Origin: Vicugna vicugna
Lineage: Eukaryota
Assembly: GCA_013265495.1 (NCBI GenBank)
Contig: MU058198.1
Span: forward strand, 1,190,419-1,254,418
Direction: 5' to 3'
DNA: 64,000 nucleotides
Of this stretch, positions 28,067-63,639 are shown one piece after another. Made by a program: the position numbers and the translations under genes. The notes under the pieces are model-generated. The model was not told where the DNA came from. It saw only the letters and a list, made by a program, of their open reading frames with translations, and made no database searches. Numbering within the stretch: the first letter of the stretch is position 1; each line of letters begins with the position of its first letter.

Positions 28067-28867
28067 GCGAAGGGGGTACCAGGCATAGTGCCTGGAAGGC
28101 AGGAAGCCCTGCCCCGGCCTCACCCCCCAGTGGTACATCGTTTGCCCCACGTACACCTGTATCACATCATCACAGGGTGCGCCCCAAGTACATACAATTT
28201 CATTTGTCAGTCATACCTCAGTAAAGCTAGAAAAAAATAAAAGTATATTTTTAAAAAATATGAAATATTAGCAAGTGATAAATTCTTAGGAGGAAGATCA
28301 AGTAGAGACTGGAGGGTAGCAAGTGTCAGATGGGAGAGGGTTCCATTTTCGGTGAGGGAGTCCGTTGAAGGTTACTTAAGCTGGAGCCAGCCTGCAGGGC
28401 ACCCCCCTCCCCTGAGAGAGCCTGTTAATTAATATTCAGGAATTTGCAAACCGGTTACTGAAACTTTGGTAGGTCTAAACTGGCCATGGTGGGAATTGAA
28501 ACTGGCCATGGTGGGAATTTTTAACCACAGATACTGGCAAACACTACAAGTCACTTTGGTGGTTTTTGTTCTCAGAGAACCAGTTTCTCAGCAGCCTCTC
28601 CCATCTGGCACTTGCTACCCTCTGGTCTCTACTTGATCTTCCTCCTAAGGATTTATCACTTGCTAACATTCCATATTTTTTTAAAATATATTTTTATTTT
28701 TTTCTAGCTTTACTGAGGTATGACTGACAAATGAAGTTGTATGTACTTGGGGTGCACCCTGTGATGATGTGATACAGGTGTACGTGGGGTAAACGATGTA
28801 CCATTGGGGGGTGAGGCCGGGGCAGGGCTTCCTGCCTTCCAGGCACTATGCCTGGTACTCCCTTCAC
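28067..28867. repeat. Inverted duplication: arms 28067-28339 and 28595-28867 (273 bp, 14 mismatches, no indels), 255-bp spacer
   Basis: Manual alignment of the left arm to the reverse complement of the right arm. The ORF track shows near-identical peptides on opposite strands. Confidence 0.95.
28380..28594. mobile_element. hAT element (MER63A-like) in the inverted-repeat spacer, with a ~21-bp tandem duplication aaactggccatggtgggaatt
   Basis: gctggagcc...ttcaggaatttgc...ggccatggtggga...ggcaaacactacaa...gagaaccagttt resembles recalled MER63. Confidence 0.6.
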
Positions 28868-29419: not shown

Positions 29420-29651
29420 ACCCTCGCTGGCTCAAAGTGTGCTGACCAGTTGAAGCCACGTGTCCTCTGATGGCTTCAGGCTCTGTGCCCTCTCTTGGCT
29501 GTGCTTGGGGCCAAAGTGCCTGTGGGAGGCTGGGTCAGCAGTTTGCTGTTACCAGCGTGCCCAGGAGCCGAGATGTTTACGGGCATTAAGGCCTGCCTTC
29601 CGCTGAAGCAGCTCTTAGGCGTCCTTTGCAGTCCCCGCGTTCAAGAACAAG
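29420..29651 (+). promoter_or_regulatory. Candidate ACSM5 promoter and non-coding first exon
   Basis: HNF4-like sites ggctcaaagtgt (~29429) and gggccaaagtgcc (29508-29520); forkhead-like tgtttac (~29574); GC-rich; donor AAG|gtactg at 29651. The ATG exon has its own acceptor. Confidence 0.5.
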
Positions 29652-30159
29652 GTACTGGGAAGAGAAACCCTTCAGCAGGAGGTGTCTGCGGCCTCCGAGG
29701 CCTTTGCTGATTAAGCCAGGCAGGGAGCAGGGCCCGTGAAATGGCTTTGGGCTCTTGGGAAGGGGGCCTGGGATTCTAATTGTCTGCTGCCAAGGGGACC
29801 CAGGAATCCAGGGGTGAAAGGCAGAGGGAAACGTGTGGGGTGGAGTTCATGAGCGGTGGGGAGAAGGGCAGGGAGGGCAGGGAAAGGGAGTCCTGAGGCT
29901 GCAGGCACCCCGGGGCTGGGGGCCACGGCACAGGCCAGGGTCTAGGCCCTTCTGGGAGGTGGGATTAAGAAGACACTTTTCCCCTCCAAGCCTCACTTTC
30001 TTTATTTATAAAATAGAGAAAATAACACATCATAGACTTGTTATGAGGATTTAAGGAAATAATGTTTATAAAGCGCTTCCCAAATGCTCAATACCCAGTA
30101 AGCCGTCAGTAGATGCCAGGTATTATTTTTCCTGTTCTTGTCACCCATTATTATTATTG

Positions 30160-38900: not shown

Positions 38901-41900
38901 ATAAGTAGTGAAGTCAGTGTTGGGGCATTTGCCTTTGAGCAAGGTCTGCTGGAAACCTATCTGGGCATTTGAGACTTTGTCTTGATTGGAAGCCAGAACC
39001 AAAAAGCAGCCCTCATAGGTGCCCACACTGTTAAGTCACAAATGCCTGTCCCCATAGATCAGCTGCATCAGATTCACCTGGGTGCTATTTTAAATTTATT
39101 TTATTTTTTGACTAATATCAACACTTGTCTCCTGTCCCTAGCTTTATTTAAAACAGAACTTTGTGTCACGTACATTTACATGTGCTATAATTATCAGGAT
39201 TATAAGACCCACAAGCATGGATTATAAATAATGTGTCCTATATTTTCTAAAATATTATATTTCCAACTTATGGTACTTCTCTGTACTATATTTTCATTAT
39301 ATTCCAATATAATGGCGAGCAGCTGAAACTTGAACAGAAAATAGTCAACACATGTAAGAAATAAAATTAAGCATGAAAGATATATTTTAAAGTTTGAGGA
39401 CATGGTAAATACCTTTTAGATTGTTCTTTCCTACACTAGAATATAAGCTTTCTACCATAAAATTATGGGAAATTACTTATTTATTTACCTAGCTATTTAT
39501 TTATTTATTTATGTTGGGGTGCGGTTTTAAATACAGACTCCAAGGCCCCACTTAACCAGACATATCTGAGCAAGGGCTCTGGGAATCTGCATTTTCAAAC
39601 ATCTGCCCAGGTGATTTTGATGAGCTGCCAGGTTGGTCCAGATCAGTGCTGTCAATTTTGGCCATCATTAGCATTACTTGAGGAGCTTTCTAAAAAAAAT
39701 AAATAATAACAATCGTCAAAGATTCTGATTTCACTTTCCCTCCAGGGTGGGGCCCAGGTAAGAATATTTCTTTTAAACACTTACCAGGTGGTCCTAAGAT
39801 GCAGCCAGGGTTGAGAAACAGTGAGTTCGAAGACTCTCCAGGTCACAGAACCTTTGGAATGACCCAGATCTCAAAACTCCAAATTTAGGGAACACTTTAG
39901 AACACAGCTCTAAATTACTAGGAGCTGAGGTGGGGGTGGGAACCGTGCCTCACGTGGGTGTGTTCCACCAGAAAGTCCTCACACCCTGATAACAGCACAG
40001 GCTCTTTTGACTGAGTCACTTGATCATTTTGAGCCTCAATTTTCTCATCTGCAAAAGGTTATAATGATAGTACCCACCCCACGAGGTGGTTCCTGTAGGG
40101 ATCAGAGAGAATGAGGGCTGGAGCTTCCAGCACGTGCCTAACACGGAGTATTTATTAAAATGGTAGCCGGCTTGTTGTTACGCATATTTTTGTAATTATG
40201 ACTATTTTCCCTACTAGCAGTATGCCCCTTGAATTTTTATATTTTACAGGGAGGCATCCACAGAACACAGCTGCTCGAGGACCAAGAGTCAAGACCCACT
40301 GGCCATCTACTTCACAAGTGGCACTACCGGGAACCCCAAGATGGTTGAGCACACACAGGCCAGCTATGGACTGGGCTTTGTGGCCAGTGGAAGGTACGAG
40401 GACCACTTGTCATGTGGGTCTGAGGAGCAGAAATTAGGCGGATGAGCTAGAGGAATGTGAGTGAGGCAGAAAGTGGTAGGAGTTGAGATCAGACAGCTTG
40501 GGTGGGGTGGGTGCAAATCAGGAAGGCTTTGAGCTTTATCCTGAGTGAGGTGACAAGCCATTGGAGATTTTATTTTAAATTGTGGTAAAGCATATGTACC
40601 ATTAAACTTACCATTTTAACCATTTTTAAGTGTATAGTTCAGTGTCGTTAAATGCATCAATGTTGTGCGATCATCCCCACCATCCACCTGCAAATCTTTT
40701 TCATCTTGCAAATCTGAAACTCTGCACCTATTATACAAAAACTTCCTATTCCCTACTACCCCCAGGCCTTGACAACAATTGTTCTGCTTTCTGTCTCGAT
40801 GAATTTGACTACTCTGGGAATCTCATAAAAGTGGAAATCATACAGTATTTTTCCTTTTGTGTCTGGTGTATTTTACTTAGCATGATGCCTTCAAGTTTCA
40901 TCCATGTTGTAGCGTGTGTCAGAATGTCCTACCTTTTTAGGGCTGAATAATATTCCATTGTGTGTATACACCAGTTTTGTTTATCCATTCATTCACTGAT
41001 GGACACCTGGGTTGCTCCCACTGTTGCAGAAAAATGTGTGACAGCTCAGCTGTGACAGCAACCTAGATCCGGGTGAGAGACCAAGCAGCACTCGGAAAGT
41101 TGGAGAACTCAGGTTTATTTTGCCAGCAGACTCAGAGCAGTTAACACTCCAAGGTCTGGACCCCGTCTGTAGGTTTACACAGGCTTTTATCAGCTGCCAG
41201 TTTACACTTTGCAACATCATATGCAAATTAGGTATAAGGAAAGCTGACTAATTAAGAACAAGCTTTGTAGAAATGGACCAATCAGGAAGGAGAGAAATAA
41301 CCAATCAGGAGTGAGCTCCATGCAAATGAAGTACTACAAATGGACCAATCAGAAGCTAGGGAAATGAACCAATCAGGAGTGAAGGAAATAACCAATCAGG
41401 AGTGAGCTCAGGGAACCAGTAGAATTTTAGGTGTAAGTAAGCTGTTTCAGAGGCAAAGAGTGAGATAGAGTCTCTGGGCCAGGGAACCGGATGGTGCTGG
41501 TAGGAGAGTAGTGGCCCCTGTTTGGGGATCCTGCCGGTCTTATTATGGGGCTTTCTGCCTCACCACCTTTTGGCTCTTGTGAATAACACTGCTGTGAACA
41601 TGGGTACACAATACCTGTTCAAGACCCTGCTTTTAATTCTTCTGAGTATGCACCAGAAGTGAAATTGCTGGGTAAGATGGTGATTCTATGTAATTTTTTG
41701 AGGAACATTAGAGTATTATGAGCAGAGGAGTGACATGATCTGATTTGCTTTTTGAAAGGATAACTCAGAATATTGGATTGAGAATAAACTGCAGGGGGCA
41801 AGGATGAAGCAGAGGACCACTTAAGAGGCCAGTACATTAAGAGACGAGGGTGGAGGCTTGCTTGCCTGGGGAAATTGTAGTGGAAGGAGTGAGAGGAGGT

Positions 41901-44900
41901 GAGATTCTGAAAGTATTTTGAATGCAGACCTAGTAAGATTTGACACGAGGTGAGAGAGAAAGAGTCAAGGACCATGCCAAGTTTATGTTTATACTTGCTA
42001 AACTATAACCCTCTCCAAGAAAGACTAATCATTTGTTTCTGTATCCCTAATGATAAGTCCAGAATAAGTGCTGAATAAATGTTGACTGAGTAAAGAAAGT
42101 GACCTTACCCCATTATGTGGAGATTATTTCTTCCCTTATATGTCACTCCCAGTAGACTATGAACTGCTTGGAAGCATGGGATCTGTCTTTTTAATTCTGT
42201 ACCGTTAGCCTAGTGCACTGGGACGTAGAAGATGCTCAATGTTTGTTGAGACAAAGGTTGACTTTATGGTTCTTGTACAGATTTGACAAGCATAAGTGAG
42301 TACACATGGTAAGCAAGGCTCCAGATAGGGGAATGGATAATGTAATTCTTTTGAAAGGTAGAAATATTGCTCGGAGTTCTGACTTACTTTCATTTTTGGC
42401 AGAAGGTGGGTGGCCTTGACTGAATCAGATATCTTCTGGAACACGACTGACACTGGCTGGGTGAAGGCAGCCTGGGCCCTCTTCTCTGCCTGGCCTAATG
42501 GATCTTGCATTTTTGTGCATAAGCTGCCCCAAGTTGATGCCAAGACTATCCTGAACGTAAGAGACAAAAATACCTCTCATGTGTTGAGTATAAATAAGAT
42601 GAGTGGGATATAGGTTTTGAACTTGCAGGAGAAGAGACATGAATCAGTGACAATAATGGTTCTTTGGTGCTCCTAGGACCTTCCATAATCTGGTTCATGC
42701 CCACTAGGCTACCTTGAATCTTTGCCTATCCTCTATCCCTAGACATAAGACCACTTTGTATCTTCAAATCTCTGCACATTCTATTTTTCCTTCTTGGGGT
42801 GCCTCTCCTGCCACTACTTGCTTTCCTATGCTCATGTCAAAACCACAGTTATTTTTCAACACCTTGGGGGATAATCATAACCTATTCCTCAACTTTATGT
42901 GCTACTGTCCATGGTGCTGAGCATACGTATTTCCCCCAACTCTAGAGTCTCCTGCCCACCCTTCAGAGGGTTATAGTTTAGCAAGTATAAACATAAACTT
43001 GGCATGGTCCTTGACTCTTTCTCTCTCACCTCGTGTCAAATCTTACTAGGTCTGCATTCAAAATTCCAGGGTTTTCTCATACTTGACATCCCCAGTAGAG
43101 GCACAGGCATCCCTCCTCTGCCCATCACATCCTAACCACAATTTCTTAAAATATCAGGGGAACCACCTGCCCGTGTTCTTTGCACTGAAGCAAGCTGGAT
43201 CACATGACTAATAGGACAGACTGGGCCATCAGTCAGGCCTCTGATCCTTCTGATGCTACATCTTCCATTTACTAGCTGTGTGTCCTTGGGAAAGTCACCT
43301 AAGTTTCCCTGAACCTCGTGTTTATCATCCTTAGGAAAGAAAGGGATAATATAGTTGCATAGAGTTGCAGTGAGACTTAAATAATACTAGACATATGGTC
43401 TGGCACATAGTAGTTTCTTAACATATAGTGATTGTATTATCACCATTATCAATCTCACCATCATTATTAATCAGGTAGGGCTTGATCAACTAGTGTGTGC
43501 CTTCTCCCTCCACTGCCCCCAGTCCCGACATAGTGTATGTATTAGTTATCAATTGTTATGCAGTAAATTACCCCAAAACATAGCAGTTTAAAACATAAAT
43601 ATTTATATCTCAGTTTCTGATGATCAGGAATCTTGGAATCAGTTTAACAGGTGGTTCTGGATCAGGGTCTCTCACAGGGTTGCAGTCAGGATGTCAGATG
43701 GGTACACCCATGTTCATAGTAGCATTGTTCATAATAGCCAAAAGGTGGAAGCAACTCAAGTTCCATGGATCCAGATAAACAAAATGCAGCATGCATATGA
43801 TGGATTACGATTTAGCCTTTAAAAAGAAGGAAATGCTGACACATGCTACATCATCTTGAAAATGTTATGCTAAGCGAAATAAGCCAGCCACAACAGAACA
43901 GATAATGTACCGTGTCTTATCATCATCAAATTCGTAGACAGAAAGTAGAATGGTCAGGGGCTGGGGGAAGGGGAAATGAGACGATATTTTGTAATGGGTA
44001 GAGAGTTTCAGTTTGGGAAGATTAAAAAAAAATTCTGGAGGTAGATGGTAGTGATGTTTGCACAACAGTATGAGTTTACTTAATTACCACTGGTAAATAC
44101 ACTTAAAAATGGTCAAATTGGTTAATTTTATGTTATGCTTACTTTGTCACAATAATAAGAAAAAAAGATGTCAGCTAAGACCGCAGTTATTTTGAGGCTT
44201 GACTGCAGCTGGAAACTGTATTAAAACTCACTCATGTGGTTTTTAGAAAATTTCAATTCCTCACTGTCTGTTGGCCACTACGTGCACTTGTCCACTGGAG
44301 GATTTGAGTGTACTCAGAACACAGGGAGTGATTCAAGAGTGGGAGAATGACAGCATCCAAGACGGAAGCCATAGTTTTTGCATAACCTAATCTCAAATGT
44401 GACATCTGCATCATGCTGCTGGTCACACAGACCAAAATTTGTGTACATTGTGGGAGGGGACCCAGTTGGGGCACTAGTAGATGGGAGTCATTCCAGGCCA
44501 TCTCAGAGGCTGGATACTACACACAGTGCTCAGTTTTTCTCCTCTGGTAATTGGAATGTGAAAACCCGATTCACTTGCTCCAACTTCATGAAGTCCCTCC
44601 CCCCTAGTGACTCTAAGATCTTCCGCCCTTTGTTTTTGTTTAGACTCTGTCCAGGTTCCCGATCACCACCCTCTGCTGTGTCCCCACCATCTTCCGGCTG
44701 CTTGTGCAGGAGGATCTGACCAGGTAGGGCCCATCTTTTTGGTGCTTTGGGGTCCTAAGTATGTAAATATATAGCACAGGTACCCCCCCTCCACCACCCA
44801 CACACACACACATACACCTTCTCATTCCAACTTTCTGTCTCTTGGTCTCTCTCACACACGCATAGTCACAAGCACACATACCCATATCCTTTGCAGATAC

Positions 44901-61183: not shown

Positions 61184-62591
61184 GTGAGCATGTTGTGAGG
61201 GATGGACGGATGGGTCATGCCTCAGGATGGCACTAACCAGTCTTTAGAAGTCAGGGCCAAGAAGGAGAGTGAAAACCTCTGGGGGAGAGAAGCCATCTGC
61301 AATCTCCAGGGGCTGAGAACATGAGGAGGCAGTGGTGGGCAAAGGAAAAGGTGGCTTTAGCACAGCAAAAGGGAGGGAATGGGGAAGCTGGGAGAAGGGC
61401 GGTCAGAGTGGGATCGGGAGTTGAGTGGTGGTCAGGGAAGCAGGCCTATCAGAGGAGGAGAGGCCAGAAGAATGAGAAAAACGTGGTATGGAAAGAGAGA
61501 GGGACCAGCAGGTGCAAAGACAGTAAATATTCCTGCCAAGGAGCTGGTAAGGAAATCTTCACTCCTTGTTTTTTTAGGAAGTAGGAGAGGAGGCACCAGC
61601 GTCTGGGACTTGCGTGTTCTAACTGCTGTTACCTAGAAAACAGGGAAAGGACTCTAGCCATTCGGTGGGACTCCATGACTGGAGTCTTTGAATCAAAGGT
61701 CATTAGACAAATTCTGCAACCTCCCATCAAAGAGCACATGTTGAAATTCAGAGACCGGCAGCCTTCCAACTACTTTCCCTAGAACCAATGTGAAGGTAGA
61801 AATAATCATAACAACTATAATTGCTAAAATGAGTCTGTGTGTTGGGTCCTCCATGCTAAGTGTACAGTATTCAAGATAGCTCAGTCAAGGATCCGTTGAA
61901 GGAAATATATGTTACTTGTAGTAAGTAACATTTACTGTGATAATTACAAACCTCCTGAACATCTCAGGAGCTCAGAAACGTACATATTTCCCCCATGGGT
62001 CTGGGGGTGATTTATCTGTGGCTGTGCTGGGCTCAGCTCAGCTCCACAGTCTGAGATCCATGCTGGGGGTAGGACCATCTGGGATATGCTACTCTCATGG
62101 CAGAGGGCAGTCCCTGACCACACAACCACACAATCACATCCACTCACATTTCACTGACCAAAGCATATTCTATGGGCAATCTAATGTCAATGGAGATTCT
62201 TTTCTCCAGAATGCACTGGGTAAGTCATGTGGAAATGAATGGGGACATACATATAATTCTACAGGGAGGGGGCAAGTTGTTGGGAAAAATAACTAAATCT
62301 ACCACACCACTGTGTTTTAAGCACAAAAGGATTTATCACGTAAGAATTGGGTGTTCACAAAACTGTCAGAAGTACTGGAGAAGGAGGACATGAAGTCGAT
62401 GTGGTGCTTTTGGAGAATGGCATATCAGAAGGAGACTGAGATAGAATGGATGCTGACTGCCAATTCACTGATAACCAAAACAGATTAATTTCTGGAAGAA
62501 CCCTGTAAGGTTGGGATGAATCTCCTCAAGCAACTGATGACTCTACGGGAAAGACTCACCTGTGTGTTTTCTTTCCTTTGCAGGTTCAAAC

Positions 62592-62768
62592 ATGCTTTGG
62601 CTGCAGAAATTCCAGAGGCTTTGCATCTTATGGGGGAGTCGGATACCCAAACGTACTGTCCACGTTCATACAAGGCAACTGGCATCCCTGCAGTGGGGCT
62701 ACCAGGAAGTTCCTCCCAAATTTAACTTTGCTAGTGATGTGCTGGATCACTGGGCTGACATGGAGAAG
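62592..62768 (+). CDS. ACSM2: ACSM2-type (ACSM2A/2B-like) acyl-CoA synthetase, first coding exon; the gene continues beyond the window
   Basis: Translates as MLWLQKFQRLCILWGS...LQWGYQEVPPKFNFASDVLDHWADMEK; acceptor ttgcag at 62583, donor gtaatt. Matches the recalled ACSM2 N-terminus and the expected gene order. Confidence 0.92.
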
Positions 62769-63639
62769 GTAATTGGGAGAAGACGCACCAAGTTGGACAA
62801 CTTGGCTGAGTCCACTAATTCATCCATTCATTGAGTAAATATTTATTGAGCACTTATTGTGTGTCAGGTACAGTGATGAGCTAGGAACAAGATGTCCATC
62901 TTCCATGAAGGCAGCATGGGGTGGGAGCAAGGGAACATGGGCTTGGCAGAAAGAAGGGCTCAGGAGGCTGGTGCAAGAAGGAGCGGTCTGGGAACCCCCC
63001 TCCCCAGGCAGCTGATAACACAGCTTGCCTGCACGTACTGCACGTGCTCTGCTGTGACGTCCCAGAGTGAAATCAGGACTAGTGGGTTGCGGTCATAGAG
63101 GAGGTAGATTTGGGCTCAGTAAGGGGAAATCAGCATTCTCTTGTTAAACTAGCACCAGCCAAAGACTAAGCCAGTCTTCTCAGAAAGTTATGGGTCTTTG
63201 TCATTAAGTAGGATGACTGCTGGGCAGGGATTGTCAAGAGAACTCCGATATGAGACATCAGAGAAAGAGAGTGATGCAGGAGTTTCTGTTTCTTTTCCTA
63301 CCCTGGACTTATAGAATTCCACCCCATTCATTGCTGGTCCTATCCTTGCCTTTACCTGAAGTTCTGTGCACCTTTATGGAGGGTAAAAGGACTCACCCTG
63401 GCTAGGGTAGCAGAAGAGGTGGATCTGCTAGCCTGGGCTTAAAAGAATGGTGCTCCAAGGGCATCCTAATTCGGTCCCAACACCATGACACAACTTTAGC
63501 ACAGAGACTACAAACACCAGGCCTTTAGGCTGAAGACGCCCCATGGTGCAGGGCTCTCTTTAAAAAAAATCAATCAATATTTTAAAATTGAAAAATTTCA
63601 AAGAAAAATTTAGATATCTGGCTTTTCTTTAAAAGTTAT

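Follow-up and report, generated by a model that had tools for sequence, protein, structure and literature searches.

The window analysed here is a stretch of 64,000 nucleotides from the Vicugna vicugna assembly GCA_013265495.1 (contig MU058198.1, positions 1,190,419 to 1,254,418 of the forward strand), and all positions given below are those of the window unless another piece is named. It contains ACSM5 on the + strand as 13 coding exons spanning 31370–53556, which encode 579 amino acids without an internal stop. The predicted protein differs from one Camelus protein at 8 of its first 375 residues; judged by this comparison, the gene is an intact camelid ACSM5, near to but distinct from the Camelus entries examined. 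Upstream, the stretch at 29573–29653 gave an 85% match to the N-terminal extension present in some Camelus ACSM5 models. Downstream, the next gene of the ACSM family begins its coding sequence with an exon at 62580–62783, which matches a fused Camelus ferus model in its second half at 93% identity.

Coding exon 5 of the 13 (42403–42556, + strand) is 154 nt long, is bordered by AG and GT, is in frame and encodes a peptide that is 98% identical to that of Camelus ACSM5. It is preceded by coding exon 4 (40250–40393, + strand, assigned from its borders and frame), which would be the upstream partner in any skip of exon 5, and is followed by coding exon 6 (44644–44723, + strand). The exon-5 donor has a C at position -1 and agrees with six of the nine positions of the U1 consensus, a mid-range score for a gene whose donors match at five to eight of nine. 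The acceptor of exon 5 is a tandem NAGNAG (42400–42406), and exon starts at 42403 or 42406 would add or drop one Arg. Residue 281, also encoded by exon 5, is Ala in the window; among 67 related proteins it was Thr in 61, Ala in one and unmatched in five, and the Ala is either a variant or an assembly error.

Exon 5 is enclosed by two unstranded intronic arms. The left arm (41915–42014, intron 4) and the right arm (42965–43064, intron 5) are reverse complements at all 100 of 100 positions as compared in the assembly, they are separated by 950 nt, and their complementarity ends at both arm edges without extension. An earlier note on this DNA, made from the letters alone, had claimed a perfect 100-bp inverted duplication with the 154-nt exon in its 950-nt loop, and that description was borne out in the assembly. 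The left arm ends 388 nt before the exon-5 acceptor, and the right arm begins 408 nt after the donor. Across all 2.03 Gb of the assembly, only two copies of the arm sequence were found, 1 kb apart. The best inverted match between flanking introns scored 100 at exon 5 vs 9–13 at the other 10 of the 11 internal ACSM5 exons, and in 20 pieces of 10 kb taken from the same contig the longest exact inverted match of non-simple sequence was 37 nt (clipped by the edge of its piece). The inverted pair around exon 5 is well above chance expectation. One of the sampled pieces (L020, 4247–4570 of that piece) also carried an exact tandem array with a 65-nt period and about five copies.

The two arms were distinguished by the old repeat sequence in which they lie. 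To the left of the left arm, the first 130 nt of a repeat fossil matched 25 dispersed places at 72–90% identity. A profile of this fossil, built from 20 of the dispersed matches and supplemented by further hits in ~260 kb excluding the test region, matched 41702–41981 without a break (E 4e-43), passing the outer edge of the left arm and reaching 67 nt into it. The fossil presumably belongs to the L2 family and lies on the - strand, both the name and the strand being our assumption. A second fossil of the same family in the opposite orientation (41985–42094, + strand; profile E 6e-5) spans the inner edge of the left arm. On the right side the profile matched 42998–43064 only, halting at the arm edge. 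Because both fossils run past the edges of the left arm while the match in the right arm stops at the edge, the profile comparison settles the direction of copying: the left arm, a native join of two old fossils, is the donor, and the right arm reproduces it. The earlier note had described the left arm as continuing an L2 fossil and running past its end: the arm does continue the first fossil, but the extra 30 nt belong to the second, oppositely oriented one (41985–42094). The halt of the profile at the arm edge also supports its view of the right arm as a local templated copy rather than a second transposon insertion.

That the flanks of the right arm might themselves be one interrupted fossil was also considered. 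Single-sequence searches found no match for them, and with four home-built profiles the best result was a weak match at 42741–42810 (E 0.06–0.16), with none to the right of the arm; profiles A–C were poor, having few copies or being mixed with a related repeat. The left arm does consist of repeat-derived sequence, as would be expected if two transposons had inserted independently in opposite orientation and had later been gene-converted to identity. However, the copy joins two oppositely oriented fossils exactly as the donor site does, repeat homology ends at the outer edge of the copy, and the dispersed relatives are merely 72–90% alike. An origin by two insertions is therefore largely refuted, and we give it almost no credence.

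The edges of the right arm were examined for traces of the insertion. No poly-A or other A tract was found at either edge. The trinucleotide TTC at 42962–42964 (+ strand) recurs at 43064–43066, which is a possible 3-nt insertion-site duplication or a matter of chance, and at 3 nt it is too short for a target-site duplication (TSD); the claim that the right arm has no clear TSD or poly-A thus held. The TSD of at least 5 bp combined with poly-A that marks retrotransposon insertions and class 1 TSIPs is absent from the right arm. The pre-insertion allele would have been a blunt site that received a 100-nt insert, or would have gained the 3-nt duplication, and a deletion at the site is possible also. 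Visible microhomology amounted to 0–1 nt at both junctions, and AGGGTT occurs near both, in a comparison confined to the present allele; a deletion at the insertion site could mask microhomology.

The absence of a TSD of at least 5 bp and of poly-A recalls the class 2 TSIPs, which in the part of the account by Onozawa and Aplan (2016, PMC5110952) used here are described as having neither feature and as deriving from distant donors. The size of the present copy falls within the 73–414 bp of the experimental insertions given there. Unlike those insertions, which are polymorphisms, the right arm has its donor 1 kb away rather than at a distant locus, the genome's two copies of the sequence being that close together.

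Substitution rates of 1–2.5 x 10^-9 per site per year were assumed for the age of the arms, and with 0 of 100 positions differing the 95% upper bound is 6–15 million years. The sequence comparison thus indicates a young copy, yet one that is not necessarily private to a lineage or polymorphic. The earlier note had called it recent, which the 0/100 differences bear out as far as youth is concerned; identity alone bounds the age only to less than about 6–15 million years.

The explanation that we favour, if by a narrow preference over doubt, is that the right arm arose recently as an inverted insertion templated nearby, by template switching or break repair, and is close to neutral. In its favour, the donor sits in two old fossils while the copy ends at the arm edge, and the gene is intact. 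In a single germline accident, 100 nt of intron 4 would have been copied in reverse into intron 5: the polymerase would have switched at 42964 to the opposite strand, read it from 42014 to 41915 and resumed on the original strand at ~43065, a switch order of 3-2-1-4. The direction of copying, the single copy and the clean edges are evident in the assembly; the template-switch or break-repair mechanism, together with the young age, is what we infer. In the pre-mRNA the arms would probably pair some or all of the time. The example of inverted Alu pairs suggests that ADAR may edit them or that slight skipping or a 154-nt circle may result, while most ACSM5 mRNA would be normal and the copy close to neutral. 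The two arms contain 34 and 28 A residues on the sense strand. A neutral right arm would be just another copying scar, of use as a lineage marker at best.

A second inverted pair indicates that real events of this kind occur at the locus. Its arms (28069–28339 and 28595–28865) are 271 nt long and differ by 13 mismatches, 12 of which are transitions; it precedes the first coding exon by ~2.5 kb and the exon-5 pair by ~13 kb, and is thus a second local inverted copy within 15 kb. The transition-dominated decay across 28069–28865 is what points to a real event. The 255-nt spacer of this older pair holds a 22-nt tandem duplication (28477–28519).

Events of comparable form have been catalogued in two surveys, of which the following is drawn from portions of each. 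In great apes, 3-2-1-4 is among the two majority patterns of template switching, the copied length has a median of 12 and a maximum of 128 nt, and templates were sought within 100 nt (Walker et al. 2021, PMC7954356). The feature described here resembles those events in being one inverted copy of nearby sequence that makes a single inverted repeat, with a length inside their range; it differs in that its template is 950 nt off and that there is no ancestral sequence here by which to fix the switch points. Of the germline calls in two people, 103 and 99 in number, 10 and 11 respectively were classical inverted templated insertions, with templates sought within 100 bp (PMC8421209). These MMBIR-type templated insertions (MMB-TI) are likewise inverted relative to a nearby template, and are seen as germline variants. 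Most of their junctions carry microhomology of at least 1 nt (138 of 155 and 135 of 148 in the two people), so the 0–1 nt visible here counts against a templated insertion, as do the exact 100-nt length and the 950-nt template distance. The insert is nonetheless the reverse complement of a nearby template at 100/100 positions, with donor and copy assigned, and its 950-nt distance from the template, being beyond the 100-nt limit of both surveys, lowers strict membership but not mechanistic likeness. Apart from exceeding that limit, the feature resembles a locally templated inverted insertion in its mechanism.

The same round length and perfect identity would be produced if a 100-nt read or short contig had been placed backwards ~1 kb from its true site, or, in a milder form, if real arms that differ slightly had been made identical by the assembler. 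An artefact of this sort is the chief competitor, improbable on balance and still a serious concern. It would account for a length of exactly 100 nt, zero mismatches and 0–1 nt of microhomology, and the assembly is apparently scaffolded, since N runs of 1730 and 262 nt were present in 2 of the 20 sampled pieces, although stretches kept back from the analysis also appear as N. However, there is no N in the window and so none near either junction, and an exact pair of similar kind occurred in 0 of the 20 pieces of 10 kb, which argues against a frequent error, 200 kb being a small sample. Overlap-based gap closing requires reads supporting both junctions, which also counts against an artefact, and the older inverted pair, mismatched at 13 of 271 sites with 12 transitions, decays as real duplicates do.

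The share of words sampled from the region that is present in sequencing runs was tried as a test of the junctions. In 16 runs that were DNA (recorded or guessed) or untyped, 0.85–0.98 of 295 words were found; three of the runs were flagged as a possible source, and the other 13, from seven studies, gave 0.85–0.96. Four further runs, RNA or RNA-like, with shares of 0.06–0.11, were given no weight. The best run carried 0.98 of the 295 words, and the two junctions would be expected to account for 0.022, as if they were the words missing; however, two SNPs yield the same deficit of 0.02 (0.011 each), and the word share does not discriminate. The test was rejected: the shares show that the region is real and cannot tell missing junctions from two SNPs. 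Should the pair prove to be an artefact, it would caution against interpreting perfect inverted repeats of round length in draft assemblies until reads have been consulted.

If the young templated copy is real, its most direct consequence would be in RNA. The predicted minimum-energy fold pairs all 100 arm bases in a duplex of -184.3 kcal/mol, as expected from the claim that the arms could form a 100-bp duplex, and the total fold energy is -435.2 kcal/mol with the right arm vs -277.7 kcal/mol without it. Predicted accessibility of both exon-5 splice sites was equal with and without the arm, partly by construction. In this fold, pairable complementary intronic sequence lies on both sides of exon 5, the arrangement associated with loop-out of an exon and with circRNA formation.

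The closest known systems are inverted Alu pairs, which likewise place complementary intronic stretches able to pair on either side of one exon (PMC13019944, PMC13019027 and PMC4201285, each used here for selected results). The present pair differs in being a unique local copy and no SINE, in having 100 nt of perfect rather than about 300 nt of imperfect complementarity, and in being known here from DNA alone. By this analogy it is plausible that the arms would pair in the pre-mRNA, with some editing, skipping or circularisation. In the results taken from PMC4201285, repeats of 30–40 nt could suffice for circles, and hairpin stability did not predict circle output. Of eight minigenes, seven showed less skipping once one Alu had been deleted, with shifts in PSI of about 1 to >40 points, in exons that had been pre-selected as already regulated (PMC13019944); by comparison with these minigenes, a perfect -184 kcal/mol duplex may not be neutral. 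Constitutive exons commonly have repeats at their flanks: in the counts of PMC13019027, 23,540 such human exons had 232,493 Alu pairs around them, counted irrespective of orientation. According to the same source, inverted pairs are enriched near skippable exons.

The outcome of skipping was computed from the exon borders. Skipping exon 5 alone places a stop at 44717, in exon 6 and 659 nt before the last junction. A stop at that distance fits the usual rule for nonsense-mediated decay (NMD). Two further routes keep the frame. In one, exon 4 is joined to an internal AG acceptor of exon 6 (44635–44655, acceptor at 44655), which restores the frame after the skip and gives a product of 524 aa; a Cricetulus gene model uses the equivalent join. 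In the other, exons 5 and 6 are both skipped. These in-frame routes drop 55 or 78 residues of the adenylation domain, a loss that should inactivate the enzyme. The proposal that a skip would cause a frameshift and probably NMD therefore stands for the skip of exon 5 alone, whereas the in-frame routes mean that NMD is not the sole outcome.

Gene models of other ACSM proteins bear on whether exon 5 is dispensable. A search with exon 4 found 70 proteins. In 58 of them exon 5 follows, and five, all from other mammals, are without it: four join exon 4 to exon 7 (two from Ovis, one from Cervus and one from Rhinopithecus) and one joins it to a point within exon 6 (Cricetulus). The remaining proteins comprise four that run into unrelated sequence, one that is unclear and two that are non-mammalian. 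These models, which are not RNA counts, suggest that exon 5 can be skipped without the right arm. A camelid protein with exon 5 skipped was looked for without success: all five Camelus entries among the 70 have the exon, and the listing contained none from Lama or Vicugna.

Two other possible products of the pair were rejected. A new pseudo-exon derived from the copy would have several AG sites and pyrimidine tracts available at 42946–43096, but by a crude count no GT in 42900–43350 reaches six of nine U1 matches. A coding 154-nt circle was discounted as rolling translation halts at codon 58.

A stronger effect on RNA than the near-neutral copy supposes would require the insertion to be real and the duplex to loop out exon 5 to a material degree, with skipping (by NMD or in frame) lowering functional ACSM5, a 154-nt circle and edited arms; the result would be a hypomorphic allele and not a regulated switch. 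The pairing of all 100 bases with arms about 400 nt from the splice sites, the C at -1 and 6/9 U1 match of the donor, the sufficiency of 30–40 nt repeats for circles (PMC4201285) and the altered PSI in 7 of 8 Alu-deletion minigenes (PMC13019944) are all consistent with such an effect. However, in those same sources stability was no predictor of circle output and the minigene exons were pre-selected as regulated. The exon-5 donor is moreover mid-range, and predicted splice-site accessibility is unchanged by the arm (partly by construction). An allele of material effect is accordingly considered unlikely.

The fuller proposition is a shade less likely again: one young copying error of non-transposon origin would have created a perfect duplex that loops out the exon, carriers would have less functional ACSM5 and would make a 154-nt circle, and the allele would be segregating among camelids. 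Were it true, a genome that lacks Alu elements would provide a natural test of loop-out splicing in which a single variable differs, and local templated inversions would be indicated as an overlooked source of splicing variants. A pair that is real and polymorphic would in any case offer a clean natural experiment, in which one gene can be compared between alleles that have the perfect 100-bp duplex spanning an exon and alleles that lack it.

The earlier note had gone further and proposed a selected regulatory switch or a recurrent exon-inverting polymorphism. Anatomy is what speaks for it, exon 5 being the sole internal exon of 11 that is caged by a long inverted match. However, exon 5 is normally oriented with its frame intact, and perfect identity is explained by youth alone. 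For mammalian homologous recombination 100 bp is a short length, which counts against an exon-inverting polymorphism; inverting the segment between the arms would leave the gene destroyed, and no such inversion is seen in this assembly. A switch or recurrent inversion is thus very improbable. With the near-neutral templated copy as the preferred explanation, the mutation is of a known kind, and its possible RNA effect is of a known kind also. In the literature searched, no paper dealt with this copy: none contained both ACSM5 and alpaca, and of the 12 containing ACSM5 and circRNA no listed title was about an ACSM5 circle.

Intron 4 carries a further repeat-like feature upstream of the left arm. 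The stretch at 41030–41560 contains repeated CCAAT-box motifs, with a 24-nt array at 41338–41405, and has the look of a solo LTR that inserted into an older piece of LINE.
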